Positions 7,486 to 64,000 are shown, counted from the stretch's first letter. The stretch is 64,000 nt of DNA from Candidatus Caldarchaeum subterraneum (GCA_000270325.1 BA000048.1:1413481-1477480); one strand, 5' to 3'. Notes: generated by a model from the letters alone, not told the origin. Numbers and translations: made by a program.

Positions 7486-7500
7486 AAAACGTTTATAAAG
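7486..7500 (+). promoter_or_regulatory. TATA-like element (aaacgtttataaagg) about 25 bp upstream of the SBP gene
   Basis: AT-rich box in the divergent intergenic region 7409-7522. Confidence 0.3.
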
Positions 7501-7522
7501 GTCTAACGACCTCCTAAAAAAC

Positions 7523-8854: not shown

Positions 8855-8890
8855 TTTTCTTAAATACATCCCACACCTTTTTTCTTAGGG

Positions 8891-9652
8891 ATGGAAAACA
8901 TTATACTTGATGTTAGAGATGTTTACAAAAGCTTCGGCGGATTGTATGCGCTGAATGGAGCATCTCTACGTGTGAAGAAAGGCTCTCTATCACTGTTGAT
9001 TGGGCCTAACGGAAGCGGTAAAACAACCCTCATCAACACCGTGACAGGCGTCTACAAGCCCGAGGCCGGCAAGATAATTTTCGAGGATAGGAACATTACG
9101 GGTCTTAAGCCGCATGTCATCTACAAGCTCGGACTGGTGAGAACATGGCAAATACCTCAGCCCTTCTACTCCATGACCGTGCTCGAGAACCTCCTAGTGT
9201 CGGATAAGAACAAAAAAGGAGATGGGTTGTTGTCCGCGCTTCTCCGGTCGCGATGGATAGATAGGGAGATGGAGTTGACGCAGAAAGCTTTTGAAATTTT
9301 GAAACTGCTAAAGCTTGACCATCTCTGGGACCACAGGGCAAGCGAGCTCAGCGGAGGCCAGATGAAGCTCCTCGAAACAGGACGAGCACTGATGAGCGGC
9401 GCAAAAATGATATTGATGGACGAGCCTGCCGCGGGTCTCAACCCAGTACTCGCACACGAAGTATTCACACACCTAAGAAACGTCTGCAAAAAACTCGGGG
9501 CAACGCTTCTTCTAGTGGAACACAGGCTGGACATAGCGATACCATATGTTGACCATGTCTACGCCATGCATCTCGGTAAAGTTATCGCTGAGGGAGAGCC
9601 TCAAGAGGTTTTGACCAACAGCTTGGTCGTGGAAAGCTACTTGGGTGGCTGA
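8891..9652 (+). CDS. livG: ABC transporter ATP-binding protein (LivG-like)
   Basis: Walker A GPNGSGKTT, ABC signature LSGGQ, Walker B ILMDEP. Confidence 0.85.
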   Translation: MENIILDVRDVYKSFGGLYALNGASLRVKKGSLSLLIGPNGSGKTTLINTVTGVYKPEAGKIIFEDRNITGLKPHVIYKLGLVRTWQIPQPFYSMTVLENLLVSDKNKKGDGLLSALLRSRWIDREMELTQKAFEILKLLKLDHLWDHRASELSGGQMKLLETGRALMSGAKMILMDEPAAGLNPVLAHEVFTHLRNVCKKLGATLLLVEHRLDIAIPYVDHVYAMHLGKVIAEGEPQEVLTNSLVVESYLGG

Positions 9653-9654
9653 CT

Positions 9655-10356
9655 ATGTTGATGACACAGGGTCTCGGAGCAGGTTACAAAAAGCTTCAAG
9701 TTTTGTTCGATGTCTCGGTTACGGTGCCCGAGAAACAGCTCACAGTGGTGGTGGGCCCTAACGGAAGCGGCAAAAGCACATTCCTCAAAACAATATTCGG
9801 CCTGACCAAAATCTACTCGGGAAAAATCATGCTCGACGGAGTCGACATAACAGGTCTTCAGCCCCATGAAATCGCATACCACGGCATATCTTATGTTCCA
9901 CAGGTGGATAACATATTCAGCAACCTAACAGTATACGAAAACCTGCTTATCGCAACCCATGGACTGGACATCGACGAGTCGGCGATAGACGATGTCATGG
10001 AGATGTTTCCGCATCTAAAAACCTACCGTAACAAAAAAGCGGCTTTAATGAGCGGGGGTGAGAGGCAGATGCTCGCCATAGCCATGTCTCTCCTCAGAAA
10101 ACCCAAGATAATGCTCTTCGACGAGCCGACTGGCAACCTCTCACCGAAAATGGCCATCACAATCTTCAACATAATCAAAGACCTCCGAGAAAACTATGGG
10201 AAAACAATCCTCCTAGCTGAACAGAACGCGAAAAAAGCTCTCGAAATAGGTGATAAGGCAATACTCCTAGTAAGCGGGAAAACGGTCTACCAAGGCGACG
10301 CCAACGCATTGCTTACGCATGAGGAGCTGGGGAAGCTTTACCTCGGAATCAAATGA
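9655..10356 (+). CDS. livF: ABC transporter ATP-binding protein (LivF-like)
   Basis: Walker A GPNGSGKST, signature MSGGE, Walker B MLFDEP. Confidence 0.85.
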   Translation: MLMTQGLGAGYKKLQVLFDVSVTVPEKQLTVVVGPNGSGKSTFLKTIFGLTKIYSGKIMLDGVDITGLQPHEIAYHGISYVPQVDNIFSNLTVYENLLIATHGLDIDESAIDDVMEMFPHLKTYRNKKAALMSGGERQMLAIAMSLLRKPKIMLFDEPTGNLSPKMAITIFNIIKDLRENYGKTILLAEQNAKKALEIGDKAILLVSGKTVYQGDANALLTHEELGKLYLGIK

Positions 10357-22804: not shown

Positions 22805-23413
22805 TTATGCTCCGAATAGCTTTTTAGCTTTTCCCAGCAGACTCTCCTGCTCTTCTGACAAAGGCTTGTCCCTCGTCTTACCAGAGGACTCGCCTAAGAT
22901 ATGCATAAAGTCAAAGGTGCTTAATGCGTGGAAAGTGCTTTCGAGAAGTTTCGCCCGATGCACTCCTATGCTCACGGGAAGGGAGACAACCCTCCCCTCT
23001 TTCGATATCTGGAAAACCTTGAACTTGAGAGAGGAGATTCTTCGTGTTTTGGCATAATCAACGGGGTCCACCACAAGGGCTACAGCCTTGCTGAACATTG
23101 CTTGGTATCGCTTCTGGGTGTCGATGTCCGTTGGCGAAAGAAAAACATCAAGCCCCGGATGCGAATGATACCATCCAACTATGTAGAGGTTTTTATCTGA
23201 TTTGGAGAGTTCTTCTGCAACCTTTGCCATAACCATCTCGTCAAGCTGCACGTAAGCAGGTGTACCGTACTGCTCACCCGTGACAGCATCCCATATCTCG
23301 AGAACCTTTCCTGCCGACTTGCCGACCAGCAAGCCCGCCACTTCACGCTGGAGGCTTGACGCAGCGTGTTTAACCACCTTCGCCAAGGCCAGCGGATAGA
23401 TTCTTACACGCAT
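22805..23413 (-). CDS. JAMM/MPN+ metalloprotease, Rpn11-like deubiquitinase
   Basis: Complete JAMM motif: upstream Glu (REVAGLLVG) and HSHPGLDVFLSPTD (HxHx7Sx2D). Confidence 0.85.
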   Translation of the reverse strand: MRVRIYPLALAKVVKHAASSLQREVAGLLVGKSAGKVLEIWDAVTGEQYGTPAYVQLDEMVMAKVAEELSKSDKNLYIVGWYHSHPGLDVFLSPTDIDTQKRYQAMFSKAVALVVDPVDYAKTRRISSLKFKVFQISKEGRVVSLPVSIGVHRAKLLESTFHALSTFDFMHILGESSGKTRDKPLSEEQESLLGKAKKLFGA

Positions 23414-23517
23414 TAGCAGACCATCGTCTAGGACGGTAATAAAAGTGACGCTCCGAGAAACGTTGTTGAATATTACCGAGGTATTTTGTTCACTGGCTCG
23501 AGGTTTGACTTCTGGTT

Positions 23518-23535
23518 AATCCTTATATATGCTGC
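23518..23535 (+). promoter_or_regulatory. TATA-like element (aatccttatatatgc) about 22 bp upstream of the Ub gene
   Basis: Sits in the 140-bp divergent intergenic region between the JAMM and Ub genes. It shares the ccttatat core with the arlB promoter element. Confidence 0.35.
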
Positions 23536-23553
23536 GGTTGTGAGGAGTCCAGA

Positions 23554-23817
23554 ATGAAGATTAAGATTGTTCCCGCTGTCGGAGGAGGTTCACCCTTGGA
23601 GCTCGAGGTTGCTCCAAACGCCACCGTCGGCGCAGTTCGGACGAAGGTTTGCGCTATGAAGAAACTGCCACCCGACACCACCCGCCTAACCTACAAGGGT
23701 AGAGCCCTCAAAGACACCGAAACTCTTGAGAGTCTCGGCGTGGCTGATGGAGACAAATTCGTACTCATCACGCGGACGGTGGGTGGATGTGGAGAGCCAA
23801 TACGTCGAGCTGCCTGA
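23554..23817 (+). CDS. Ubiquitin homolog (pro-form: beta-grasp ending in GlyGly plus a 9-aa C-terminal extension CGEPIRRAA)
   Basis: LPPDTTRLTYKGRALKDTETLESLGVADGDKFVLITRTVGG aligns with ubiquitin [41 protein letters not shown]. The N-terminal MKIKIV strand resembles MQIFVK. Confidence 0.85.
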   Translation: MKIKIVPAVGGGSPLELEVAPNATVGAVRTKVCAMKKLPPDTTRLTYKGRALKDTETLESLGVADGDKFVLITRTVGGCGEPIRRAA

Positions 23818-24295
23818 AAACGCGTGGTACAGGCGGCTGGCTCTCGAGTATGCTTTGATTCAGGAGAATGAACCCACCTTCACACCCGTCGAAAACGACC
23901 TAACTCATTACGAGGGAGTCATAGTCGGCTCAGGCGAATATGAGGGAGGCTTTTTCAGAGTAGAAATAATCATTCCACGGTCTTACCCATATTTCCCACC
24001 CGATGTTATTTGGCACACACGGATATGGCATCCAAACTTCTCTGACAGCGTCCCCGCAAGAGTCTGTGAATCAATTTTCAAAGACCACTGGTCACCCTCT
24101 CTCCGCATAGTGGCCGTAATCGAGTCTTTGAGAAACCTTTTGACAAACCCCAACCCCGAGGACCCGCTCAACCCCGTCGCAGCATTTGAGTACAAGAACA
24201 GGCCCGACCTCTTCTACAGCCGTGTTAGGCAGTTTGTCGAAACATATGCTACGCCTGAGCAGGCTTTCGGAAAGAAGCGTTGGAAGGGTTTGTAG
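23726..24295 (+). CDS. Ubiquitin-conjugating enzyme E2 (UBC fold). Start is uncertain: ATG 23726/23747 or GTG 23783/23789; it overlaps the Ub 3' end
   Basis: UBC hallmark HPN motif with the downstream catalytic Cys (RIWHPNFSDSVPARVCESIF). The N-terminal helix is RRLALEYALIQENEP. Confidence 0.8.
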   Translation: MRVSAWLMETNSYSSRGRWVDVESQYVELPENAWYRRLALEYALIQENEPTFTPVENDLTHYEGVIVGSGEYEGGFFRVEIIIPRSYPYFPPDVIWHTRIWHPNFSDSVPARVCESIFKDHWSPSLRIVAVIESLRNLLTNPNPEDPLNPVAAFEYKNRPDLFYSRVRQFVETYATPEQAFGKKRWKGL

Positions 24296-25479
24296 TGTTG
24301 GGTGAGGTTGACGCGCTGTCGAGGTACGATCGCCAGCTACGGCTCGAGGGATGGGACCAGAACAAGCTCCTGTCGGGTAGGGTGATTGTAGCAGGTGTGG
24401 GGGCGCTTGGATGCGAGGTTGCGAAAAACCTCGCTCTTATGGGAGTTGGCGAGCTCCTCCTCATAGACAACGACTATGTCGAGCTTTCCAACCTCAGCAG
24501 ACAGATGCTCTACACCGACCAAGACATAGGAAGACCAAAAGCCTCTACGGCTGAGAAAAAAATATCCTTGATGAATCCTCTCGTGAAGGCGAAAGGCCTG
24601 CACACAGATGTCCGAAAAATCCCCGAGGAAACCTTCGCCGAGGCCGATGTCATAGTCTCAGCCGTCGACAACTGGCCGACAAGAAGATGGATGAACTCGA
24701 TGGCGGTGCATGTCGGAACTCCGCTTGTCGACGTAGCCACCGACGGCTACTATGGAAATGTTCAAACAGTGATACCCGGTGTCACCAGCTGCCTGGAATG
24801 CCATGCAGAGGCCCTTATTCCCTCGGACATACAGGCCTCGGAATGCTCTCTACGCCGCCGCACCCCAAACGACCTCGTCAAAGACCTTAGTGAACGAGGC
24901 ATATCAATAAACTTGTCCGATGCCGAGACTCTCTTCCAACACAACATCAAAACAGTCTACGACATCAAGTTCGCGCCGCAGACAGTGTTGGATCAAATGG
25001 ATAAGTCACTCAGAGAACAAGTCATCCAGCTCCGTTCACTGCTTAACCCCAAGATGCCCGCTCTACAGAGCATATCAGCAACCGTCTCAGGCCTTGCCTC
25101 GTTCGAAGTAGTCCGTTTACTTCATAAAGGTTCTCTGGGCAGGTCGTTGAACGGTATGATGGTTTTCGACGGGCTGAGGGGGAGGCTTTCGCGTATAAAG
25201 CTGGAGAGAAACGTGAACTGCCACGTATGCGGCTACAGCGAGGACAAGCCTGTGCAGATAAATGTTGCGCCTAACGAAACTATCGCCGACCTAAGAGAGA
25301 GAATATCCAACCTTCTAATGTTTCCTGACACCCGTTTACAACACGGCGCAAAACTATTGGATGACACGGCTGATATTACATCGGCAGGCATATGTGATGG
25401 AGACATACTTTATATCCATTCAAGCAGGAGAGCAACACCGGTGGCTGTGAAGGTGAAGCTGATTGAGGCTGGTGATTAG
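24280..25479 (+). CDS. Ubiquitin-activating enzyme E1-like (ThiF/MoeB/UBA family) with C-terminal ubiquitin-fold domain. Likely start is the GTG at 24295 overlapping the E2 stop (taGTG)
   Basis: YDRQLRLEGWDQNKL plus the Rossmann motif VAGVGALGCEVAKNL. A Cys-containing crossover region (CLECH...C) and a beta-grasp-like C-terminus. Confidence 0.85.
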   Translation: MEGFVVLGEVDALSRYDRQLRLEGWDQNKLLSGRVIVAGVGALGCEVAKNLALMGVGELLLIDNDYVELSNLSRQMLYTDQDIGRPKASTAEKKISLMNPLVKAKGLHTDVRKIPEETFAEADVIVSAVDNWPTRRWMNSMAVHVGTPLVDVATDGYYGNVQTVIPGVTSCLECHAEALIPSDIQASECSLRRRTPNDLVKDLSERGISINLSDAETLFQHNIKTVYDIKFAPQTVLDQMDKSLREQVIQLRSLLNPKMPALQSISATVSGLASFEVVRLLHKGSLGRSLNGMMVFDGLRGRLSRIKLERNVNCHVCGYSEDKPVQINVAPNETIADLRERISNLLMFPDTRLQHGAKLLDDTADITSAGICDGDILYIHSSRRATPVAVKVKLIEAGD

Positions 25480-25690
25480 AGAGGTCAACGCAGGGTTTTG
25501 GAACCCCTTTGAGGAGCCGAAGCCAAGGCCGAAGCAAGAGAACTGTGTAATTTGTGGCCTGGAGATGGGGAATGAAAAAACATATTCATGTCCTCACTGT
25601 GGAGCAGTTGGTCACATGTCGTGTTTCGACGACTGGCTGGTGGTGAAGCAGACGTGCCCGCTTTGCCGCAGGCCGCTGGTAGAGATGTGA
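25463..25690 (+). CDS. Small RING-type zinc-finger protein (putative E3). Likely start is the GTG at 25472 overlapping the E1 stop
   Basis: CVICx10CPHCx4Hx2Cx10CPLC, a C4HC3 cross-brace spacing, in a protein of about 72 aa. Confidence 0.8.
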   Translation: MRLVIREVNAGFWNPFEEPKPRPKQENCVICGLEMGNEKTYSCPHCGAVGHMSCFDDWLVVKQTCPLCRRPLVEM

Positions 25691-39899: not shown

Positions 39900-40991
39900 T
39901 CACCCTTCTGAGAAGATGTTGAGGCTTGTCTGGCCTGAGACAGGCTTAAGTCCTGTGAACCTCACTCCAACACGTCTAAGCATCATCTTCTCATCTGTCT
40001 CGAGAAGTTTTGTCAAGAGAATGCGCAGGGTTCTCAAAACCTCGTCGAGAGACGCTCCAAACCGTATGTCAGCCTGTCGAGTGATTGTTTCTAGACGCGT
40101 GGTTATAGCTATCAACCCTATCTTTGAGGCGAAAAACTTAGCCGACGCAAGCCTCGTGTAAGCCTGTGAAGCGGCTGCCGCAAGCGTCTCCATGACCTCC
40201 TCGACTTCGCGAGTGTTCCGTTTAAGGGTGACTATTTTGCTCAACTGCTTAGGCGGAGGCCTCTCCTCTATAACCTCGTCATAAATTCCCCTTGAAGCTA
40301 GGTAAAGGTATTGGGCTTTCTTTGGCCCGAAAAGTTCCTCGAGCTTCTCCAGACTTTGACGCGAAAGGTCGCCGACTGTTTTGATTTGGTGCTCGGCGAG
40401 GATTGACTCTGTTTTAGCCCCTATGCCGGGCAGGTTCTTGACAGGAAGGTCACTTAGGAACTCTTCCAAATTTTCTGGTTTCACGACTGTGAGGCCATCA
40501 GGCTTCGAGTAATCGGCCGCCATCTTAGCTACGACACGGTTAGGGCCTATCCCAACGCTGCAAGTTAAACCAAAATTTGCCCTGATCATTTCCTTAACTT
40601 CTTTCGCGAATTCCTCGGCCTCGGCGTAGTCGCTTCCCACGGCCTGTGTAACATCCATCACGGCCTCGTCTACGCTCTCCACACGGAGGGGTGTGTTGAA
40701 TTTCTTGAGGTTGTCCATGATTTGGCGCGAGATGTTTGCATAGTGTTCTAGCCGCACGGGAAGAATTACTGCCTCCTCTGGTAGAAGCTTCTTGGCTGCT
40801 TTTATGGGCATTCCTGCTTTTACCCCGAATCTTCTCGCCACATAGTTTGCTGAGCTCACTACTCCGCTGTCGGAAGTTCTTCCTGAGAAGACGCATACGC
40901 AGAGCGGCTTACCCCTTAGCTCAGGGTTTTCGACCTCCTCAATCTGGGCGAAAAAATAGTCAAGGTCTAGGAATAGAACAATCCGCGGCAA
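39900..40991 (-). CDS. dinB: DNA polymerase IV (Y-family, Dpo4/DinB). Start probably the TTG at 40991
   Basis: IVLFLDLDYFFAQIEEVENPELRGKPLCVCV...SANYVARRFGVKAGMP. A conserved Y-family palm and the Dpo4-like start MIVLFVDFDYFYAQ. Confidence 0.85.
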   Translation of the reverse strand: MPRIVLFLDLDYFFAQIEEVENPELRGKPLCVCVFSGRTSDSGVVSSANYVARRFGVKAGMPIKAAKKLLPEEAVILPVRLEHYANISRQIMDNLKKFNTPLRVESVDEAVMDVTQAVGSDYAEAEEFAKEVKEMIRANFGLTCSVGIGPNRVVAKMAADYSKPDGLTVVKPENLEEFLSDLPVKNLPGIGAKTESILAEHQIKTVGDLSRQSLEKLEELFGPKKAQYLYLASRGIYDEVIEERPPPKQLSKIVTLKRNTREVEEVMETLAAAASQAYTRLASAKFFASKIGLIAITTRLETITRQADIRFGASLDEVLRTLRILLTKLLETDEKMMLRRVGVRFTGLKPVSGQTSLNIFSEG

Positions 40992-41047
40992 TTCCGGAAA
41001 ATCTTCCTCGGAACGGTATAAAAGCCTCCACGCATTACATAGAGGTG

Positions 41048-41998
41048 ATGCGTAGGATAGGGATTGCTCGGGGGCCACAGCTTTTTCTATACAGTTTTCC
41101 CGAGCCGCATCCCTTGAACAGGGTAAGGCTTGAGGCCTTCTACCAAAAGCTTGACAGCGAAGGGAAAAATTTGCAGGGTTTGTTGTTTGTCGAGCCGGAA
41201 AAAGCAGGGAAAGACGATGTGATGCTTTTCCACACACCTGCTTATGTCGAGTTTGTCGAAGAAAGATGCAGGGTGGGAAAAGGTTACCTCGACTACGGTG
41301 ACACACCCGCTTTCCCGGGCTGTTTCGAAGCAGCTTCATACGTCGTTGGAACAACGCTTAAACTGCTACGCATGATTATCTCCGGCGAGATTTCGGCAGG
41401 TTTCAACCCGATGGGTGGCCTGCATCACGCGAGACGTGACAGAGCTGGCGGGTTCTGCATATTTAACGATGCCGGGGTGGCCATCGAGTATCTCCTCAGA
41501 CGCGAAAACATGCGGAACGTCGCCTACGTAGACATTGATGCTCATCATGGAGACGGTGTCTGCTATGACTTCTACAGCGAAAAGCGTGTGATTTTCGCCG
41601 ACATCCATCAAGATGGGCGCACACTTTACCCGGGGACAGGTTTTCGAAATGAGACAGGCGAGGGTGAGGCGCGTGGAACCAAGCTCAACATTCCGCTTTT
41701 GCCCTATTCGGGTGACGAGGAGTTTTTCCAAGCATTTCAGGAGGTTGAGCAATTTCTCGAGAAACATGAGTTTGATTTTCTGCTGCTACAGTGTGGAGCT
41801 GACGGGTTGATGGGAGACCCGCTTACAAACCTCCAATACTCTGCGAGGGCCCACGGCTACGCGGCTTCGAGGCTTCTCAAGATTGCTGAGAAGAAGTGTG
41901 GAGGTAGGATTCTCGCGATGGGTGGAGGAGGATATGACCCTGTGAATGTGGCGCATGCGTGGACAGCCGTTGTGAAGGCGTTTGCAGAGCAGGGTTAG
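41048..41998 (+). CDS. Histone deacetylase-family protein (AcuC/acetoin utilization/HDAC class)
   Basis: Metal-binding DIDAHHGDG, catalytic HH (GGLHHARRD) and CGADGL motifs. ATG at 41048. Confidence 0.8.
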   Translation: MRRIGIARGPQLFLYSFPEPHPLNRVRLEAFYQKLDSEGKNLQGLLFVEPEKAGKDDVMLFHTPAYVEFVEERCRVGKGYLDYGDTPAFPGCFEAASYVVGTTLKLLRMIISGEISAGFNPMGGLHHARRDRAGGFCIFNDAGVAIEYLLRRENMRNVAYVDIDAHHGDGVCYDFYSEKRVIFADIHQDGRTLYPGTGFRNETGEGEARGTKLNIPLLPYSGDEEFFQAFQEVEQFLEKHEFDFLLLQCGADGLMGDPLTNLQYSARAHGYAASRLLKIAEKKCGGRILAMGGGGYDPVNVAHAWTAVVKAFAEQG

Positions 41999-55893: not shown

Positions 55894-58107
55894 ATGTGGA
55901 ACTGGAGGACGCTCGCCGTCTTCGGCGTAGCTTTTCTCATTAGGGCTGTTTTGGCGCCCTTTTTCGGTCATTCATGGGACATGTATGTTTGGGTTAAAAG
56001 CGGTGAGATGTTCTCCAGCGGCGTCGACGTCTACTCTGTAAAGAATTTGACCGATTTTCCATGGGGTTTCTACGCTTATCCGCCTGTCTGGCTCTACTGG
56101 CTCGGGTTTGCCCATGCTATTTCCGGTTTTTTCCCGAGTCTGAGTTTTCAAGTCTTCGTTATAAAGCTCCCGATTATTTTTGCTGATCTGGCCGTGGCTG
56201 TTCTGGTTTCTAGGCTGGCGGCTGAAACAGGGGGGTTGAAGTATGCTGGATTGGCTTCGCTTCTCTGGCTCTTCAACCCTCTGGTCATCGCGATATCGGC
56301 TGTTTGGGGCATGTTCGACTCGATTGCGGTCGCATTATCCCTTTTCGGCGTCTTGCTAGCCTACCGGAGAAAATATGCGGCCTCGGCGTTTGTGCTGGGA
56401 TTTGGTGGAGCCGTCAAGCTCTACCCATTATTCCTCATGCTTCCGCTGCTAGTCTACATGAGGATAGGTGAACGAATATCCCTCAAGAAATCCCTCTTAA
56501 CAATCATAGCCTGTGTCTCTGGACTAATCTTGCCCGCCGCACCATACATCACCAACCCAATCCCCCTACTCGAGAAGCTGTTCTACCACTTTGGAAACAT
56601 CGGCAGCTTCACCTACTGGACAGCACTCAGCCTCGTATCGCCTCCAGCAGCCATTCCAGCGTTATCCTACGGCTTTTTCGCAGCAATACTCTACATCGTC
56701 TACAGAAGAACTCAAAAAAGCAATAGACCCAGCCTTTTCGACCTCTCACAATTAACATTAGTAGCTTTCCTAGCCACTTCCGCAAAGGTGAACGTCCAAT
56801 ACGTTTTATGGGTTCTGCCCTTTCTCACAATCTCGTCTCTGCGCAGCGCAAGCCGAGAGCTTCGTATGAACACTGTGCTTTTAGTGGTCGCTGGCGTCCT
56901 GTTTATCGCTGCCTCACAGGTGGCGCTCGCCATATTCGACCTGCGAAACCTTGGGAGGATAGTTGTTTCCCGTGAGGTTGAGTCGATGACTATTGGTGGC
57001 GTGGCCTTGGTTCTTTCCGCCATTTTCGGCGGCTCGAGGTTTATTGTTTTGTTTACATCGCTGATAGGTATCCGTAAGAATGTTTGGAATGTTCAGAGAA
57101 TCACTATTGTTTCGCTGTTGGTTGTTTTTGTTCTTGTTATAGCGGTTTTCCCCGTGGGCAGAGGCGTGGTTATGCCAAGGGCCTCGGTTGTCGTCGGAGT
57201 CACAGAGGGTGTTGAAGCCCTCTTCACGAAGACAGAGAGCTTTGGCGTAGAAGGGATTGCTGACAGGCTTTTCATGACTCATCTAGTGATTCCCTTCGGA
57301 CCCGAACCCTACATCTATGGAGGAAACTTTGGCGAATCCTCAAGGTTTAAGCTCACAAACGACATGTGGCTTGAAAAAGATTTGGCAAACCTGGCATCCA
57401 AGCTAAAAACAATGGGGATAAAACCTGTTCTCGGCCTCTACCTCAAGACAAGCTATGTCTCTGTACATTTTGGATACCATGGCTACAACTCTTCCAGATT
57501 ATTATCGGAGTTCGGGAGATGTGTGTCATCCGGCGGGGATATTGTTTTTTCCTGCTTGACTGACACGGGCGAGGTTTTCGGAGATTTTTTGGCTGAAAAA
57601 GTTGTTGCCGCTGTTTCTCGGATGGGGTATGACGGTGTTTATGTTTTGGGGTTTGACTGGATTAGGCCCGACGCAGACATCGATGGCTTTGCACAGTTTG
57701 TCGCGAGCTTGGCAACGAAGGCGAAGAGTAAGGGGCTTCTGGTGTTTGTTGAGGTCGACCCACTGGTAGCGAGATACGGGTTCTCTCCTGCAGTTGAAAA
57801 TGTTTTGACTCATGCCGAATACATCGTTTTGCTCACCAACCCGTTTGTCAAAAATCTTGAGAACCCTCTGCGGGGAAACTATACCATAGCCGAGTACAAG
57901 AGGCTGATGGAGATGTTTGTTGAGAAGGCTTCGGGCCGCGCCAAGGTGCTGTATTCTCTTCACGTCATGGATATTGCCAAGGGTTGGATGACGCCTGCTT
58001 TGCAGGTTCAGCTCGAGGTTAACGAGTTTTCCTCGGTTAGGAATGTTCATGGATATGCTGTTTACCATGTCAGCCGCTATTTGCCGATGAGGCTTACGGT
58101 CAGCTAG
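55894..58107 (+). CDS. Large membrane protein: GT-C-like (DUF2029-type) glycosyltransferase N-domain fused to a soluble TIM-barrel-like C-domain
   Basis: 737 aa. About 12 TM helices in the first 420 aa, then a 300-aa globular domain. Confidence 0.45.
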   Translation: MWNWRTLAVFGVAFLIRAVLAPFFGHSWDMYVWVKSGEMFSSGVDVYSVKNLTDFPWGFYAYPPVWLYWLGFAHAISGFFPSLSFQVFVIKLPIIFADLAVAVLVSRLAAETGGLKYAGLASLLWLFNPLVIAISAVWGMFDSIAVALSLFGVLLAYRRKYAASAFVLGFGGAVKLYPLFLMLPLLVYMRIGERISLKKSLLTIIACVSGLILPAAPYITNPIPLLEKLFYHFGNIGSFTYWTALSLVSPPAAIPALSYGFFAAILYIVYRRTQKSNRPSLFDLSQLTLVAFLATSAKVNVQYVLWVLPFLTISSLRSASRELRMNTVLLVVAGVLFIAASQVALAIFDLRNLGRIVVSREVESMTIGGVALVLSAIFGGSRFIVLFTSLIGIRKNVWNVQRITIVSLLVVFVLVIAVFPVGRGVVMPRASVVVGVTEGVEALFTKTESFGVEGIADRLFMTHLVIPFGPEPYIYGGNFGESSRFKLTNDMWLEKDLANLASKLKTMGIKPVLGLYLKTSYVSVHFGYHGYNSSRLLSEFGRCVSSGGDIVFSCLTDTGEVFGDFLAEKVVAAVSRMGYDGVYVLGFDWIRPDADIDGFAQFVASLATKAKSKGLLVFVEVDPLVARYGFSPAVENVLTHAEYIVLLTNPFVKNLENPLRGNYTIAEYKRLMEMFVEKASGRAKVLYSLHVMDIAKGWMTPALQVQLEVNEFSSVRNVHGYAVYHVSRYLPMRLTVS

Positions 58108-58555
58108 TGTCGGGAGGTAGTCGTCTCCATTTCGGCACCTGCGGATAAGCAACACCGTTAATATCCACTACAGCTGTTCCGAGAAGATGTTCCCTGTAAC
58201 GGCCTATCACTGTTTTATGGTTTTGTTTCCCAACCTTCACCGGGTCTCCTCTCATCCACTTTAGGGCATCCTCTTTCGTAAGCTCAACCACATGAGCCTC
58301 TGGAGGCAGTGTGACGAATTTGCAGCCCTCAATAGTTAGGGTGACAAAGTTTTTCCTCTGCTTGGCCACGTAGATACCCGCGTTCATAACTCCTCGGAAA
58401 AGTGTGGCGGCTCGATAAGCTTCTTCCGTCAAGGCCCTTACCTTGCCCTCACCTGTTTTCACGAACACATAACCCTCTGTCAGCAGCCTTGCCCCGAAGC
58501 CCTTCAACACCTCGTCAGAGAGATGTTGAAGCTCATGTCTCTCCATCTTTTTCAA
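58100..58555 (-). CDS. PUA-like domain protein, hypothetical (downstream of the NSUN methyltransferase)
   Basis: 151 aa with a C-terminal beta-rich PUA-like segment. Confidence 0.3.
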   Translation of the reverse strand: MKKMERHELQHLSDEVLKGFGARLLTEGYVFVKTGEGKVRALTEEAYRAATLFRGVMNAGIYVAKQRKNFVTLTIEGCKFVTLPPEAHVVELTKEDALKWMRGDPVKVGKQNHKTVIGRYREHLLGTAVVDINGVAYPQVPKWRRLPPDTS

Positions 58556-58564
58556 GCCTAGTGC

Positions 58565-59527
58565 TCACCCAGGCTTCCTAATCTTAGCTATGTAAAAGCC
58601 CTCGGCACCGCTCTGAAAAGGCCATATCCTCACTGTCTTACGCACCTCTGGTGAAAAAATTCGTCCACCCCATTCATCAAACCCCCAATCACACTCGAGA
58701 CCGTTTAGCTTAATCGGAAGTACTTCAGCCTCTTCAAATTTCTCCAACAAATTGTTCACGACGGTCTCGTTTTCGAATGGATGGAACGTGCAGGTGGAAT
58801 ATATCAGAATGCCTCCGGGCTTTAGGGCCATGTATCCGGAGAACAATAGGCTTGTCTGAAGCCTAGACAGCCTCGCCGAGGAACCCGTTGTCCAGTTTCG
58901 TAAAACGCTCCAGTCTTTGGAGCCTATGCCGAGAGATGTGCAGGGCGCGTCTATCATGACTCTGTCAAACATCCCCCTATACCTGTAGCCGAACCTTCTC
59001 CCGTCCGCGAGGGTCAACACACCGTTAACAACCCCGCATCTCTGCATGTTAGATGAGAGGGCTTTGATACGTGTCCTCGAGACATCGTTTGCCACAACCA
59101 CGCCTTCACCTCTCAACCTGGCCGCTATGTGAGTTGTTTTGCTGCCTGGGGCGGCGCAGAGGTCGAGGACCCAGTGACCAGGCTCAACGTCCAAAAGCTC
59201 GGTGACAAGAATTGAGACGGGGCCCTGAGCATAAACATAGCCCAACATGTGCCAGAGAGAATCAGTCAACAACCCCTCCGGCTCCGCGTAAAAACCATCG
59301 ACCGTGAACGGAATCCTTCTAACGGTCAACCCCTCCTCTCGGAGCAGAATTAGACAATTTTCCCGGTCTATCTTGAGGGTGTTGACGCGGAAAGAATCAG
59401 GCAGCGGCCTAGAATACGCTTCGAGAAGCATGTCCATTTTATCGGGGATTATTGCCTCGAGGAAACTTCTCAATTCCTGTGACAGCTGAACACTCATTTT
59501 AACACACGACCCGTTGCAGACGCCCAA
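58565..59527 (-). CDS. NOL1/NOP2/Sun-family RNA cytosine-C5 methyltransferase
   Basis: SAM motif VLDLCAAPGSKTTHIA and catalytic PCT/TC motifs (DAPCTSLG, STCTFHP). Confidence 0.85.
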   Translation of the reverse strand: MGVCNGSCVKMSVQLSQELRSFLEAIIPDKMDMLLEAYSRPLPDSFRVNTLKIDRENCLILLREEGLTVRRIPFTVDGFYAEPEGLLTDSLWHMLGYVYAQGPVSILVTELLDVEPGHWVLDLCAAPGSKTTHIAARLRGEGVVVANDVSRTRIKALSSNMQRCGVVNGVLTLADGRRFGYRYRGMFDRVMIDAPCTSLGIGSKDWSVLRNWTTGSSARLSRLQTSLLFSGYMALKPGGILIYSTCTFHPFENETVVNNLLEKFEEAEVLPIKLNGLECDWGFDEWGGRIFSPEVRKTVRIWPFQSGAEGFYIAKIRKPG

Positions 59528-60117
59528 ATCAATAGGTCAAGCTCCGCGGGCGTTAAACCAATTTTCTCCGCATGGCTGACAAATTTTCTCTCATAGTCAA
59601 GGTAGCGCCATGGCGAAAAAGGGGAATCCACCTTGTTGATAATTCTGTTAGCGGCCATGTATCTAAGTATGTGTCTGTCGAGAATCGCGAGTCCATCGAA
59701 ACCGATGTTACGTAGAAAATGGCTCGCCTCCTTCATCCCCAGCCCCACCACAACATCCACAAGAAATCTCCTTATCTCCACATGCGACCTCCCACTTCTA
59801 ACAACAGCAAGAACATCACCAAACATCTTCAACGCGTCAACGATATGCCGAGCCTTTGTTCTATGAAACCTTACACCCGAATTCCTCAAAACAGATTCTA
59901 TCCTTGAAATTTCTCCTTGCCATAGAGCCCCCTTGTCGAAGAGTTTCTCAACCGCGGTTAATGCGCATAGTGCTTTGGTCTGTGGAGTGCACAAACAGTA
60001 GACAAGCTCCTCCAAAACCCTGTCATCATCGAAAAAATTTCGCCTAAACTGTTGGACAACAACTCTGATTTCATCCCTGTAGAGTGGCAGCTTCGACAAT
60101 ACGGCAGATGTCTTCAT
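59494..60117 (-). CDS. ogg: 8-oxoguanine DNA glycosylase, HhH-GPD superfamily (Ogg2-like)
   Basis: HhH motif GMKEASHFLRNIG with the catalytic Lys and Asp (LDRH). Confidence 0.65.
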   Translation of the reverse strand: MKTSAVLSKLPLYRDEIRVVVQQFRRNFFDDDRVLEELVYCLCTPQTKALCALTAVEKLFDKGALWQGEISRIESVLRNSGVRFHRTKARHIVDALKMFGDVLAVVRSGRSHVEIRRFLVDVVVGLGMKEASHFLRNIGFDGLAILDRHILRYMAANRIINKVDSPFSPWRYLDYERKFVSHAEKIGLTPAELDLLIWASATGRVLK

Positions 60118-61580
60118 CTATGGTCTTTGGTTGCCGAGCTCCTTTTAAAGAAAAGTTTGGTCTGCCCCATCGTCATAAGGCTGCTCGTTCTCACTTTCAG
60201 CATCAGCGGAATGTCCGAGACTATTTTGCCGAGTACGAGGCAGCGTCTTGGCGGCATCTTCTTGACGAGTAGCTTCACGGTTTCGGAGTCGATTTTCGAT
60301 ATTTTTGAAATTTTTTCTAGGTCTGTGTCGTTTGTGAAGTTGAACAGGAAAATGTTGTCGGCCTGTCTGTATACCAGCTCGGGTATGGTGTCTGGCTGAT
60401 TTGTTACAAAGATGGGGAACATTCCTATGTGTCTCATTCTAGTTACTAGGTCTTCCCAATAGGTCTCCCGGAGGTATAGATGTGCTTCCTCAGCTAACAG
60501 GAAAAGAGGCTCAATCTTGTTTGACGAGAGTAGCGTCGAGAGGTGGCTGAGTAGGTATTCGACGACAAGTCTTCTTGTGCTAGGTAGCAGTTTGGAGAGG
60601 TTGACCACGGTGACGTTTCCGCCTGGTCTTGGTTTGAGTAGTTCTGCGAGGTCTGTGGGGTCGTTGTCGGAAATGAAGCCTGAAGAGTTGATGCTCTCCA
60701 GCCTCGAGAGCAGGGCCTCGCGCACAGCCTCGTTCATCGGCTCGTTTTCCACAACATCCATCAAGTCGTCTAGACAGAAGTCTCCACATTCTTTTTCAAG
60801 CTTCTTCCATATTCTTCCAAGCTCTCTTAAGCTGGTTGCCGGAGTTCCGTAGACATGCTCCATTATGTCGTGAAAGGTCTTCAGCCCCATCATCCTCAAC
60901 GAGGCAGTGAAGTTTCTGCCAGGATGCAGAAGTGTAAGGGCGTCTGCGAGGTCGCTTTTACCGCCGTCAAACCTTTTATCCAGACTAAGGTACTCGCCGT
61001 TGACATCAAGCACAACAACGGTTCCCCCATTTGACACGATTCCCTCCACAATTATTTTGGCGAGATGTGATTTCCCGCTCTCTTTCTTTCCTGTTATGAT
61101 TGTTAGGCTGCCGTCAAGCCTAGTCAACGGAAGGTTTATCGGCTCTCCCCCTACTGTGCCGGGGCAGAAGAGAAATTGGTTTTCATCTCCAAGTATGAGC
61201 TGGTGGAGGAGATGTGGCCCGGCTTTTTCATGTGTGGCCGTGTATCTGCTTGGGAGCCATGGCGATGTTTGGGCCTGTAAACCGTTGTGGAAAATGGCGC
61301 GGACTTTGGCCGTTACGCACCGGACCTCCCGAACCATCATGGAGAGTGAGGATGTGTTGTAGGGGTCGAGTGAAGATACTCCATCAACCTCCGCGACTAT
61401 CAATTCTCTCAAAAGCTCCTCCACTCCCCCCGGCAAGTCAACATAACCGACGTCAACGACCTGTGCGAGCAGGAAACTATTTCCTTCACCTAATTTGATG
61501 TAGTCACCTATCTCAAAGTCGAGCTCTGAGGGCATGCATAGCAGCTCAAGAGTTTCTCCATGTTTCTGTAATATTTTCAT
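60114..61580 (-). CDS. HerA/FtsK-like (DUF87) ATPase
   Basis: Walker A TGKKESGKSH and HerA-type Walker B FLLAEEAHLY. N-terminal barrel-like domain. 488 aa. Confidence 0.55.
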   Translation of the reverse strand: MKILQKHGETLELLCMPSELDFEIGDYIKLGEGNSFLLAQVVDVGYVDLPGGVEELLRELIVAEVDGVSSLDPYNTSSLSMMVREVRCVTAKVRAIFHNGLQAQTSPWLPSRYTATHEKAGPHLLHQLILGDENQFLFCPGTVGGEPINLPLTRLDGSLTIITGKKESGKSHLAKIIVEGIVSNGGTVVVLDVNGEYLSLDKRFDGGKSDLADALTLLHPGRNFTASLRMMGLKTFHDIMEHVYGTPATSLRELGRIWKKLEKECGDFCLDDLMDVVENEPMNEAVREALLSRLESINSSGFISDNDPTDLAELLKPRPGGNVTVVNLSKLLPSTRRLVVEYLLSHLSTLLSSNKIEPLFLLAEEAHLYLRETYWEDLVTRMRHIGMFPIFVTNQPDTIPELVYRQADNIFLFNFTNDTDLEKISKISKIDSETVKLLVKKMPPRRCLVLGKIVSDIPLMLKVRTSSLMTMGQTKLFFKRSSATKDHR

Positions 61581-61587
61581 CTCTCTT

Positions 61588-62595
61588 TCACGAGTGTGTC
61601 AGCGGCCCAAAGAGGAAGCTTCTTAACGATGGTGATTGTGTGAACTTAATCTTGTGAAGAGCTTCGAGCCGAGCGCATATAGAGAGGATGTCTAATCGGC
61701 TGAGCTTTGCAAGCTGATGCGCCAGTATCAAAGACTCCGGATAGCCGTAGATGATTGCCTCGCTTGAGAGAAGTTGGTTGAGAAGCTGGATATCGTCGGC
61801 GGCGGAGACATCGACTCTGAAGGGAAAATATCGTGGCGAGAGGTGGGCCACGTATATTGAGCCGCAGTAGACTGGCCAACGCTCCGTCCTGCGCGGAGGC
61901 AGCTTAACGACGTAGGGGGGTGCCATGGTGCCTGCGACCGAGAGAATGTTTCGGCCCTGCAGAGTTAACGTGGTTGATTTAGAGAACGCGGCTACGCCGA
62001 GGCCGTTGCGATGGGACGACTCAACTATGCGGGCAACGACCTCTACGGGACTGTCGGCAGGACCTGCGGTCAAAGCTCCGTCGAGAAGAAGAATTCCGCC
62101 CTCTATAATTTGTGAGGCATGTAGTTGGAGAACTTTTTCGAAAAGGTTTCCGACAAGCTTGGGTGCGGTGGTTTGGTGGAAGGATGGTGTTTTGCCGTCC
62201 ACACCCAAAACATCAAAAAGTGATGAAAGTATCATGTCCACGTTGCGTGGAGAAGATGTGTAGACGAAGGGGCCGACCAACATAACCTCCAGCCCAGAAA
62301 CGTTTTTCCTCACTATGCTTCCGCGGACAGCCCAGAGGCCACCCTCCGCCGAGTCGGCAATCTTCACAGTGGACATGTCGCATGCAACAACAGGAACCCT
62401 TACCCCCGCCGGCTCTAGAGGAATGGCATCACATCCATCCATGTCCAGCTGGAACTCGTCTTCTTGGCTGTCGGTTGACGCTGTTTCTATCGCGACGGTG
62501 TGGTTTTTTAGACCAGTGAGGCTGTTTTGGGCTGTTTGTGTGAATGTTTCTAGGAGGGTTTGTAAGTGATGTTGTTGAATGGTCAGATTGCTCAT
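61588..62595 (-). CDS. NurA-like nuclease domain protein. Start taken at MSNLTIQQ; the track ORF extends to 62676
   Basis: Acidic motifs VVACDMS and ILLLDGAL resemble the NurA catalytic Asp residues. Paired with the HerA-like gene. Confidence 0.4.
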   Translation of the reverse strand: MSNLTIQQHHLQTLLETFTQTAQNSLTGLKNHTVAIETASTDSQEDEFQLDMDGCDAIPLEPAGVRVPVVACDMSTVKIADSAEGGLWAVRGSIVRKNVSGLEVMLVGPFVYTSSPRNVDMILSSLFDVLGVDGKTPSFHQTTAPKLVGNLFEKVLQLHASQIIEGGILLLDGALTAGPADSPVEVVARIVESSHRNGLGVAAFSKSTTLTLQGRNILSVAGTMAPPYVVKLPPRRTERWPVYCGSIYVAHLSPRYFPFRVDVSAADDIQLLNQLLSSEAIIYGYPESLILAHQLAKLSRLDILSICARLEALHKIKFTQSPSLRSFLFGPLTHS

Positions 62596-62676
62596 GATGT
62601 TCAACAACTTCACAGAAAGATTGGAGTTGTTGAAGTATTTAAATATTGCGCAACATGAGCAATAAACAGAACACAA

Positions 62677-63081
62677 TTGACAACAGCAAAAATCAAAATC
62701 AACATAGGCAACATAACGGTGGAAATAGAGGCTCCCGTCGACAAAATAGAAGAAGCCGTCAAAAACACCATCGCAGCCATCCGTTCAACAGAACAAGCAA
62801 CACCACAGCCGCAGACACAAACACGCAAACCAGTCACCTGTAAGAAAGCGGTGGAAGATTTGCTTGCCGATGGATGGCTTCAAACGGGCAGGACACTCGC
62901 TGAAGTTGTTTCCGAGCTCGAGAGACGCGGATTCCTATACGACACAACGGCCGTGGCCCATGTCCTGCTCGACCTCGTCAGAGAAGGAAAGCTCGAGAGA
63001 GTCGGAGAACCCCGTCGCTACATTTACCTAGCCAAGAAAACATCAGTCACTCAACGCTTAGAAGAAAACTCCACAAGATAA
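62677..63081 (+). CDS. Small wHTH protein (paralog 1), TTG start
   Basis: N-terminus KIKINIGNITVEIEAPVDKIEEAV and a C-terminal winged-helix-like LLDLVREGKLERVGEPRRYIYL. Confidence 0.4.
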   Translation: MTTAKIKINIGNITVEIEAPVDKIEEAVKNTIAAIRSTEQATPQPQTQTRKPVTCKKAVEDLLADGWLQTGRTLAEVVSELERRGFLYDTTAVAHVLLDLVREGKLERVGEPRRYIYLAKKTSVTQRLEENSTR

Positions 63082-63530
63082 TCGAGGCCATAAGGAGTGA
63101 TAGTGTAGCCGCCGCGTCCAACCCTTTTCAGCAAACTCTTCTGCACAAGCTCAGACAACCGGCCCGAGACCGTTTTCTCAGGCTTTCCAAGGGCTGAAGC
63201 AGCCTCTGAAGCGAGAAACTCGCCGCTGTCAGAATGACCGAGCAACTTGTTCAAGTAACGTGTCGAAGCATAGAGCAGCAGCGCTTCAGCTGTAGGTAAT
63301 TTGGACAAATCCGTTCTTAGATAGATTCCCTGCGAAGAGTCGTAGCTAACCCAGTCCTTGATTTTGTCGAGAATCTCCTCTACGCCGGCGGAGCTGCGCA
63401 GCTTTGAGGCAAGTGAGTAGGCTGGAATGTTTTTCTCGAGAAACTTTAGCACGCTTTGATAAACATCGGCGGGATCACCTTCAAAGTCCGCCCGCAACTC
63501 ACCGTAAGTAATAGTGATTTTCAGCTGCAT
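63051..63530 (-). CDS. Small wHTH protein (paralog 2)
   Basis: N-terminus LKITITYGELRADFEGDPADVYQSVLKFL and a C-terminal LSELVQKSLLKRVGRGGYTITPYGL. Confidence 0.4.
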   Translation of the reverse strand: MQLKITITYGELRADFEGDPADVYQSVLKFLEKNIPAYSLASKLRSSAGVEEILDKIKDWVSYDSSQGIYLRTDLSKLPTAEALLLYASTRYLNKLLGHSDSGEFLASEAASALGKPEKTVSGRLSELVQKSLLKRVGRGGYTITPYGLDYLVEFSSKR

Positions 63531-64000
63531 TTACTCACCCTCGATAGCTTTCATGCCTGTTGAAGGCTTAAAAAAGTAACGCCCTTCGTCGTCGCGGTCG
63601 ACAACACCTTCTTTCCACAATTCGCTGAGACGTGCACGAGCTACTTTTTCATCGATGTGTAGAATCTGCGCTACACGTTTGGGGCTTAGACCATCGGAGT
63701 CAAGGAAACCTAGTCGTCGGCCTGCATAGGCTCCTGCGAGACAGTAAACAATTCGTTTCTTTGTATCGGCTTCTGCGACTACATCTATGCCACCGTTGTT
63801 GACAACCACTTTTCCAATCATCTTCTCAAGCAGCTTACCCAAATCAACCTGTCCACTCAGCTTTGCAACAGCTTCAACAGGGCCGAGACGCTCGGAAAAA
63901 TAGCGGTTGACTAGCGCCCACACCTCCTCCTTATCGCCGCTGAACTCAACCTCGTTACCTCCATGCCTGATTCTAACCGTAACAACCGTGTCTCCGCTCA
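63531..64000 (-). CDS. Small wHTH protein (paralog 3), 5'-partial, running off the window end
   Basis: The frame stays open upstream of the listed GTG: ...DTVVTVRIRHGGNEVEFSGDKEEVWALVNRYF. This is the same N-terminal pattern as paralogs 1 and 2. C-terminal RLSELWKEGVVDRDDEGRYFFKP. Confidence 0.4.
   Translation of the reverse strand, partial: SGDTVVTVRIRHGGNEVEFSGDKEEVWALVNRYFSERLGPVEAVAKLSGQVDLGKLLEKMIGKVVVNNGGIDVVAEADTKKRIVYCLAGAYAGRRLGFLDSDGLSPKRVAQILHIDEKVARARLSELWKEGVVDRDDEGRYFFKPSTGMKAIEGE

Follow-up and report, generated by a model that had tools for sequence, protein, structure and literature searches.

In archaea, HerA–NurA takes the place of RecBCD or AddAB, and accounts of it normally treat it only in combination with Mre11–Rad50. 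A 64,000-nt stretch of DNA from Candidatus Caldarchaeum subterraneum (the window) ends in a gene cassette that encodes a HerA-like ATPase, a NurA-like nuclease and three small winged helix-turn-helix (wHTH) proteins of 134, 159 and 156 residues (s134, s159 and s156). The cassette is a vertically inherited chromosomal unit in Caldarchaeales, other Nitrososphaeria and Bathyarchaeia. With growing phylogenetic distance, its sequence identity declines as fast as that of the housekeeping genes around it. In both search directions, the four gene families of the cassette stay together far more widely than the genes that flank them. The cassette probably represents a lineage-wide second HerA–NurA-type DNA-processing module, in which s134 would function as a dedicated autoregulator and s156 and s159 would be accessory DNA-binding proteins.

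Organization of the cassette

The window and longer contigs from the same population (e.g. L001) were analysed, and coordinates are positions in the window unless a contig is named. The cassette contains the following features.

60114–61580, minus strand: HerA-like ATPase belonging to the FtsK/HerA superfamily, 488 aa (open reading frame, ORF; Pfam DUF87)
61068–61091, minus strand: Walker A motif GKKESGKS of the HerA-like ATPase (translation)
60480–60500, minus strand: Walker B region LLAEEAH of the HerA-like ATPase (translation)
61588–62595, minus strand: NurA-like nuclease, 335 aa from the ATG (ORF; Pfam NurA)
62596–62676: divergent promoter region between s134 and nurA-like, 81 bp
62636–62653, minus strand: putative operator and TATA box, with the palindrome TTGCGCAA (62646–62653) abutting TATTTAAATA (62636–62645) (sequence read directly)
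62677–63081, plus strand: s134, 134 aa, divergent from nurA-like; predicted autoregulator or DNA-recognition subunit
63051–63530, minus strand: s159, 159 aa, second gene of the s156–s159 operon
63531 to beyond 64000, minus strand: s156 (CSUB_C1522), 156 aa, paralogue of s159, named hypothetical protein

Along the minus strand, the s156–s159 operon is followed by s134 in the opposite orientation, the operator and TATA box, and the nurA-like and herA-like genes. The nurA-like gene lies upstream of the herA-like gene on the coding strand, and the two are separated by a 7-nt spacer with no gene between them. The s134 and s159 genes are convergent and overlap by 31 nt at their 3′ ends. The stop codon of s156 abuts the ATG of s159. 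The s156 gene starts with a TTG codon whose first base lies 1 nt outside the window, and the full gene is found at positions 8261–8731 of L001. A protein of Ca. Caldarchaeum subterraneum matches the HerA-like protein at 100% identity. The 488-aa start of the HerA-like protein is correct because homologues keep the N-terminal MKIL... sequence, and public assemblies carry a 473-aa gene call that is too short on this sequence evidence.

An earlier reading of the window, made from the sequence only, had described a HerA–NurA pair followed by one divergent and two tandem small genes. The presence and places of the pair stand, and its order is reversed, with nurA-like first on the coding strand. The arrangement of the small genes was likewise correct, and the third gene, said to run off the window, loses merely one base. 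As that reading stated, no mre11 or rad50 gene lies between the pair. None occurs elsewhere in the window, in the 8.7 kb beyond it or in L001, and the rest of the window is also devoid of further HerA or NurA genes and of small-protein paralogues.

Conservation of the cassette in archaeal lineages

A genome scan with one genome per species identified at least 510 relatives of the HerA-like ATPase. Synteny was counted in the best 80 loci, one per genome, from Caldarchaeales, other Nitrososphaeria and Bathyarchaeia, with the following results.

HerA-like: 80/80 loci
NurA-like, upstream: 78/80 loci
s134 family, divergent, directly upstream: 64–66/80 loci
s159/s156 family: 49–53/80 loci
gatD/gatE: 18–23/80 loci
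Nudix: 18/80 loci
ogg/rsmF/151-aa ORF: 16/80 loci (Caldarchaeales)
TM84, FrhB and PolB: 5–8/80 loci

Most of the loci that lack s134 are truncated at the s134 end. Unbiased clustering of all ORFs from the 80 loci placed the same four families at the top, followed by a sharp drop to gatD/gatE, Nudix and a CdvB-like family, and the clustered neighbour ORFs contain no mre11, rad50 or integrase cluster. The ogg/rsmF/151-aa block lies outside the conserved module because it is kept in 16 loci only, all from Caldarchaeales. In many Nitrososphaeria and Bathyarchaeia loci, the cassette takes a fuller form, in which an s134-like gene heads the small-gene operon, ahead of the s156-like and s159-like genes. 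This operon is followed by the oppositely oriented s134 and then by the nurA-like and herA-like genes. The extra s134-like gene is thus found in many relatives.

The linkage was also observed in the reciprocal direction, in a search of metagenome contigs with the s134 family alignment from which 80 independent loci were kept. The NurA-like gene is divergently adjacent to s134 in 61 of the 64 loci where the contig leaves space of 400 bp or more, and the HerA-like gene comes next in 32 of the 33 loci with at least 1.8 kb. The small wHTH genes had been linked to the pair in the sequence-only reading, and the synteny and the reciprocal search support this link far more strongly. That reading also allowed that the wHTH proteins could be common chromosomal regulators conserved in synteny across relatives. 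They are indeed kept in synteny, but with the pair itself and not as generic regulators.

The HerA-like orthologues span three lineages and fall into identity tiers of 97%, 58–70%, ∼50% and 40–45%. Within Caldarchaeum, the HerA-like proteins are 58–70% identical and the PolB proteins 62–67%. The gatD/gatE genes upstream are kept in both Nitrososphaeria and Bathyarchaeia. Two cassette contigs (L077 and L078) are assigned in public records to bacterial metagenome-assembled genomes (Acidiferrales and Krumholzibacteriaceae) and show the Bathyarchaeia gene order; they are probably mis-binned.

The HerA-like ATPase and the NurA-like nuclease

The HerA-like ATPase matches Pfam DUF87, the HerA central domain (PF01935; E value of 3.5e-16, 60.4 bits against a cut-off of 23.2). 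In an alignment of 17 homologues, the Walker A residues G164, K166, G169, K170 and S171 and the Walker B residues E364, E365, A366 and H367 are invariant. The closest solved relative, identified by searching the PDB with the family profile, is Sulfolobus solfataricus HerA (4D2I; E value of 2.3e-18, residues 118–472), and anti-phage HerA structures match at E values of 1.6e-10 and weaker. The Pfam HAS-barrel has no match in the HerA-like protein, whose N-terminal 150 residues are conserved.

Equivalog models are not reached by the HerA-like protein. The repair-HerA models of NCBIfam score far below their cut-offs (NF040937, 26.2 bits against 800; NF040819, 16.2 bits against 970), as does the anti-phage model HerA_antiphage (NF042943, 30.5 bits against 800). 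The PADLOC HerA models give at most 35 bits, and the PADLOC mad8 model gives 57.6 bits, which is similar to the generic Pfam DUF87 score.

The NurA-like protein of the window scores 23.1 bits against Pfam NurA (PF09376; gathering score of 21), and 33 of its 36 orthologues match this family, the best with an E value of 5e-15. D73, D172 and H293 do not vary across the 36 aligned orthologues, and E153 is kept in at least 90% of them, so that the four residues compose a D/E/D/H set of the catalytic type. Also conserved are the lysine of an FSK motif, the motif FRVD and, at the C-terminus, the motif YPE..L..AH. The C-terminal motif of the family profile aligns to S. solfataricus NurA (2YGK; E value of 0.004). 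The HerA and NurA family membership suggested for the 488-aa and 335-aa proteins in the sequence-only reading was thus found by profile search. Because the matches are at the domain level and the ATPase scores lie far below the equivalog cut-offs, the two proteins are members of these families and not orthologues of characterised HerA or NurA.

Small winged-helix proteins

The s159 and s156 proteins are solid paralogues that align over their full length (BLASTP E value of 5e-9). BLASTP gave no match between s134 and s159 or s156, and a profile–profile comparison related them with a probability of 57% and an E value of 1.1e-4. In this comparison, the N-terminal hairpin and helix and the C-terminal wHTH align, and the middle of s159 is skipped. 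The three-way paralogy proposed earlier is therefore solid for s159 and s156 and weak for s134, where it is seen at the profile level alone.

The AlphaFold model of s159 (predicted local distance difference test score, pLDDT, of 88.4) consists of a β-hairpin, a winged-helix-like middle subdomain formed by three helices and a hairpin, and a canonical C-terminal wHTH. In the s134 model (pLDDT of 69), the wHTH at residues 55–119 (pLDDT of ∼90) is connected through a disordered linker to an N-terminal hairpin and helix. The β-hairpin N-terminus and winged-helix C-terminus described from the sequence thus appear in the models of both families, although the s134 hairpin is of low confidence.

Foldseek identified no full-length match for s159 in the PDB and the BFVD viral library (template modelling score of at most 0.43) or for s134 in the PDB; generic wHTH regulators were the only matches. 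A PDB profile search with the s159 family returned generic wHTH matches that cover positions ∼100–160 only, and none was significant for s134. All Pfam and NCBIfam scores to known wHTH regulator families (MarR, ArsR, TrmB, BlaI/Penicillinase_R, AbiEi and Csa3) are below the cut-offs and concern the C-terminal wHTH only. The s159/s156 wHTH matches PADLOC Csa3/CARF-wHTH profiles weakly (E values of 5e-5 to 3e-4). Tandem winged-helix complexes were also considered, namely ESCRT-II after a weak EAP30 match for s156, ScpB/MukE and TFIIF/A49-like complexes; as Foldseek gave no full-length match, no claim is made for them.

An exhaustive profile search collected 646 cluster representatives of the s134 family, and the ten that were looked up are unnamed or called 'hypothetical protein', as are the homologues listed in the other searches. 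In two proteins (P0277 and P0327), an FtsK/HerA-type ATPase and a coiled coil are fused to an s134-type wHTH, which is 37% identical to the wHTH of s134 (E value of 2e-15). P0277 (L087, positions 8001–9500) matches Pfam DUF87 and the PHROG 'terminase large subunit' (7e-9). It is surrounded by ∼25 small unannotated ORFs and adjoins a giant PKD-repeat protein. We regard this locus as a probable virus of archaea or mobile element, with a packaging or transfer ATPase that carries an s134-type DNA-recognition domain.

A conserved promoter element

The divergent promoter contains an element, WTGNNCAA, that abuts the TATA box and occurs once per locus. The degenerate motif [TA]TGNNCAAN[AG][TC]T[TA]A[TA]A is present in 64 of the 80 genome loci, always once, on the NurA/HerA strand and 60–150 bp upstream of the nurA-like gene. 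When both strands were searched, it had one off-target in ∼1 Mb. It occurs once in the 64-kb window against 0.03 expected, and 67 of the 69 metagenome loci with enough upstream sequence contain it. The element was sought in the promoters of the s156–s159 operon and is absent there. Further half-sites (TTGNNCA) are found upstream of the element as direct or inverted repeats, and their spacing varies by lineage.

The recognition helix of s134, YD.TAV(A/S)H.L.DLV(R/K), is nearly invariant across three lineages. The residue that follows its conserved histidine was compared with the dinucleotide at the centre of the element. All 16 cases of AG have S, T or G at this residue, 16 of the 19 cases of CA have A, and V is found mostly with CG, in Caldarchaeum and likewise in three Bathyarchaeia loci. 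Phylogeny confounds this covariation, which is therefore no more than suggestive. Under the usual geometry of archaeal promoters, the palindrome would be located at the s134 promoter between the start site expected there and a near-palindromic TATA box, and at the position of the B recognition element (BRE) at the nurA–herA promoter.

Other candidate signals were rejected. TTGCGCAA is not a dispersed signal of the type of the FtsK orienting polar sequences (KOPS), with two sites in the window against 1.2 expected and no enrichment. Close to the start of the nurA-like gene, the repeat TTCAACAACT/AGTTGTTGAA, which is inverted, is not conserved as such and was discarded as an operator. The recurrent TTGGTGAA was discarded likewise and is a Shine–Dalgarno-like GGTGA before the nurA-like start in Bathyarchaeia.

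Proposed mechanism

The enzymatic activity, complex formation and operator binding of the cassette proteins are predicted. By analogy with the canonical complex, a HerA-like hexamer and a NurA-like dimer would form a translocase–nuclease that processes DNA ends. The s134 protein would bind WTGNNCAA through its near-invariant recognition helix. Given the positions of the element in both promoters, this binding would autoregulate s134 and gate the nurA–herA operon. The s156 and s159 proteins may associate with s134 or with the enzyme via the shared N-terminal β-hairpin and act as additional subunits for DNA binding or targeting.

The pair most probably represents a second HerA–NurA system beside a canonical rad50–mre11–herA–nurA set, as reported for the thaumarchaeal ancestor and for Sulfolobus. 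This claim of a second pair is based on the literature (PMC7554672 Table S3; PMC5587795; PMC9976892).

Several points weigh against this interpretation of the cassette. The s156/s159-type genes are missing within 5 kb in approximately one-third of the loci, and for this reason they are possibly not obligatory partners. The NurA score of the window protein itself is marginal (23 bits), and the N-terminal hairpin of s134 is modelled at low confidence (pLDDT of ∼46). The choice of s134 as the operator binder, over s156, s159 or an unlinked factor, derives from gene arrangement and conservation, and the helix–operator covariation carries the phylogenetic confounding described above. No direct statement that canonical herA, mre11 and rad50 coexist in Ca. 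C. subterraneum was found in the literature. The window pair would correspond to the 'second' thaumarchaeal families of Abby et al., a match that we infer.

Comparison with known systems

The cassette shares two protein families and their tight coupling with canonical HerA–NurA (S. solfataricus 4D2I/2YGK, P. furiosus and T. kodakarensis). The window ATPase resembles canonical HerA in its length of ∼490 aa, its DUF87 core, its Walker A and B motifs and the alignment of residues 118–472 to S. solfataricus HerA. The window nuclease resembles canonical NurA in its Pfam NurA match and in the conservation of the D, E, D and H residues and the YPE..L..AH motif. Unlike the canonical herA–mre11–rad50–nurA operon, the cassette lacks mre11 and rad50 in all 80 loci, has the order nurA then herA, and includes two to four small β-hairpin/winged-helix proteins and a conserved operator. 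Its ATPase is also very divergent from canonical HerA (16–26 bits against equivalog cut-offs of 800–970).

Standalone NurA-like/HerA-like pairs are already annotated in archaea. In Sulfolobus islandicus, a separate nurA–herA operon (SiRe_0094/0095, equivalent to SiL_0094/0095) has a promoter that is bound by the CARF-wHTH protein Csa3a (PMC5587795; PMC9976892). As the cassette probably does, this operon encodes a second NurA-like/HerA-like pair apart from mre11–rad50 in the Thermoproteota, with winged-helix control at the promoter, which is predicted for the cassette. In contrast, the S. islandicus regulator is encoded elsewhere and contains a CARF sensor, whereas the DNA-binding proteins of the cassette are encoded in situ, have no CARF domain and carry a β-hairpin N-terminus.

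The reconstructed ancestor of ammonia-oxidising archaea contained rad50, mre11, herA and nurA together with a second herA (arCOG00280, FAM000368) and a nurA without an arCOG (FAM003221) (PMC7554672 Table S3). A joint loss of the second herA and the unclassified nurA is reconstructed for one of the descendant lineages (Abby et al. 2020, PMC7554672 Table S3). A HerA family with a highly divergent NurA fits a co-inherited Nitrososphaeria pair, although these families are matched to the cassette by description only. Associated small wHTH genes and the promoter element are not mentioned in that study (PMC7554672). No description of the wHTH-family association, of the small-protein structure or of the conserved operator was found in the searchable literature, and the partnership of nuclease, motor and wHTH proteins appears undescribed.

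The FtsK γ/KOPS system resembles the cassette in combining an FtsK–HerA motor with winged-helix DNA recognition, and the s134-type wHTH occurs fused to such an ATPase. In the cassette, however, the winged helix is a separate protein. Anti-phage HerA systems (Sir2–HerA and DUF4297–HerA) likewise use HerA as a platform for a nuclease or another effector. The cassette differs from them in that it lacks Sir2 and DUF4297, gives weaker profile matches to their HerA structures than to repair HerA, and has a vertical and not an island-like distribution.

Genomic setting and neighbouring genes

The cassette lies in an ordinary chromosomal setting. On the longer contigs, the window is followed by genes for an 84-aa membrane protein, FrhB-like, ferredoxin, B3_4, CBS, AFOR and aldo-keto reductase proteins, and no integrase was found there. 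Two tRNA genes are located ∼2.4 and 3.7 kb away, with ordinary genes intervening. The 58–64 kb region is typical of the window in GC content, GC content at third codon positions and tetranucleotide composition (z values of −0.7 and +0.9). The rest of the window encodes housekeeping proteins (PolB, agmatinase, PGK, ProRS, COX1, NuoD, ThiD/ThiN and a Y-family polymerase). Sir2, DUF4297 and other defence effectors are absent from the neighbour families of the 80 loci.

The sequence-only reading had assigned the cassette to a defence island or integrated element. With no integrase or att site, a typical composition, at least 510 ATPase relatives and lineage-graded identity, this assignment is not supported. 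Past position 64000, where that reading proposed to look for an integrase, a tRNA-borne att site or defence genes, only metabolic genes and distant tRNAs were found, and the comparison of composition that it proposed showed no anomaly.

Three co-oriented genes follow the herA-like gene, whose stop codon is overlapped by the first of them by 4 nt.

59494–60117, minus strand: 8-oxoguanine DNA glycosylase gene, ogg (Pfam Ogg-HhH, 8.7e-52)
58565–59527, minus strand: rsmF-like gene, co-oriented with ogg
58100–58555, minus strand: 151-aa ORF, co-oriented with ogg

The 151-aa ORF has no Pfam match and weakly matches the C-terminal portion of E. coli-type RsmF (positions 383–454 of NCBIfam PRK11933; E value of 0.04). 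It may be the split-off C-terminal domain of the rsmB/F-like methyltransferase encoded upstream of it, and it is kept with ogg and rsmF in the 16 Caldarchaeales loci. In 18 Bathyarchaeia loci (within L038–L085), a convergent Nudix hydrolase gene (∼150 aa) is found just downstream of the HerA-like gene. Two different functions of the oxidised-guanine type adjoin the cassette in different lineages, with ogg in Caldarchaeales and Nudix in Bathyarchaeia, which may be a coincidence. In 16 Nitrososphaeria loci (within L015–L031; e.g. L015, positions ∼7500–9400; L012, positions 9460–10188), the gene immediately after the HerA-like gene encodes a CdvB/ESCRT-III-like protein that has a winged helix at its C-terminus, and a convergent MIT-AAA (CdvC/Vps4-like) gene comes next. 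This adjacency may be plain one-clade synteny, or it may hint at a connection with cell division.

Two further features lie elsewhere in the window. A Y-family (Dpo4-like) translesion polymerase gene (39900–41354, minus strand), located 19 kb from the cassette, is a further gene for DNA-damage tolerance; other genomes show no linkage between it and the module. An operon for a ubiquitin-like modifier of the eukaryotic type occupies 22805–25690, with the following genes.

22805–23413, minus strand: JAMM/Rpn11-like gene
23554–23817: ubiquitin-like gene, 87 aa, with a ..TVGG motif near the C-terminus
23726–24295: E2/UBC-like gene
24280–25479: E1/ThiF gene (Pfam, 1.7e-56)
25463–25690: RING-like Zn finger gene, 75 aa

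We take this operon to be the already known system that Nunoura et al. 2011 reported from Ca. Caldiarchaeum subterraneum.

Alternative explanations

The pair could instead be the sole housekeeping HerA–NurA end-resection machine of the organism, divergent in sequence, with Mre11–Rad50 encoded elsewhere and the small wHTH proteins acting as local regulators. The ordinary context and vertical inheritance would suit such a machine, as would the repair HerA of Sulfolobus as the nearest solved relative and the translational coupling of the repair gene ogg downstream in Caldarchaeales. The scores of the ATPase against the repair equivalogs (HerA_Thermprot, 26 bits against 800; helicase_HerA, 16 bits against 970) speak against it, but these NCBIfam models were built on other classes and low scores are therefore expected. 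A sole machine fits poorly with the thaumarchaeal reconstructions, in which canonical herA/nurA and mre11/rad50 are accompanied by a second herA and an unclassified nurA, and with Sulfolobus, which has a canonical operon plus a standalone nurA–herA operon. In addition, two to four dedicated DNA-binding paralogues exceed the needs of a simple regulator. This explanation is unlikely but stays a live rival. A role in anti-virus defence or as part of an integrated element, in which a HerA–NurA-type effector is held off by wHTH repressors and released on infection, is considerably less plausible. HerA-family ATPases are effectors or scaffolds in several defence systems, and weak PADLOC matches were obtained for the ATPase (mad8, 57.6 bits) and for the small proteins (AbiEi and Csa3/CARF wHTH, E values of 5e-5 to 1e-3). 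A virus-like locus also encodes a packaging-type ATPase that carries the s134-type wHTH as a fusion, and the standalone nurA–herA operon of S. islandicus is induced by Csa3a for CRISPR adaptation (PMC5587795). Against these points, the cassette shows no integrase, att site or compositional shift, has at least 510 species-level relatives, occurs at one locus per genome among the 80 kept and retains an ancient gatDE synteny. The HerA_antiphage score is 30 bits against 800, the neighbourhood is free of Sir2, DUF4297 and other defence effectors, and the NurA-like protein and s134 have no PADLOC match.

Two further alternatives concern how the motor is used. The small proteins may be subunits or loaders of the machine, which would assemble into a hetero-oligomer via their N-terminal β-hairpins and provide the HerA-like motor with DNA recognition. 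Their part would then correspond to that of the winged-helix γ domain in FtsK, or of Mre11–Rad50 in canonical HerA–NurA. In FtsK, a winged-helix domain reads KOPS, and up to four paralogues that share one N-terminal element are conserved with the enzymes. The fusion proteins in which an s134-type wHTH is joined to a coiled coil and an FtsK/HerA-type ATPase, taken as Rosetta-stone evidence, also favour a subunit or loader. The low-confidence hairpin in the s134 monomer model is as might be expected of an element that needs a partner. However, divergent genes with a palindrome on a shared promoter are the classic layout of an autoregulator, TTGCGCAA is unenriched in the window (2 against 1.2 expected), and the s156/s159 genes are absent nearby in approximately one-third of the loci. 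We regard loading as improbable to about the same degree as the housekeeping explanation. The same low probability is given to its wider form, in which the paralogous β-hairpin/wHTH proteins would assemble through their N-termini into a sequence- or structure-specific DNA-recognition platform that loads or directs the HerA-like and NurA-like proteins and stands in for Mre11–Rad50. Least probable of all is an FtsK-like DNA pump coupled to chromosome segregation or division and not to repair. HerA belongs to the FtsK–HerA pumping ATPases, and in 16 Nitrososphaeria loci a CdvB-like gene and then a convergent MIT-AAA (CdvC-like) gene follow the HerA-like gene. The Cdv adjacency is, however, found in one clade only and therefore represents one evolutionary event. 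The ATPase is also paired with a nuclease in which the conserved acidic and His residues are intact, and it has no membrane anchor.

Biological implications

The cassette, read as a second HerA–NurA-type module with its own regulator, would be a system fixed in the chromosomes of several large, mostly uncultured archaeal lineages. It also provides a warning that a standalone HerA–NurA pair with small wHTH genes should not be called a defence island before its distribution is checked. If the less likely platform arrangement were true, the small proteins would be a trans-acting counterpart of FtsK γ, and the cassette would be a second, differently targeted end-processing pathway in Nitrososphaeria and Bathyarchaeia. 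The DNA-binding partner proteins match no curated family, and the promoter element was kept while the proteins diverged to 25–45% identity. The cassette thus yields a testable regulator–operator pair in lineages with almost no known transcription factor sites, and candidate targeting factors for a HerA-type motor.

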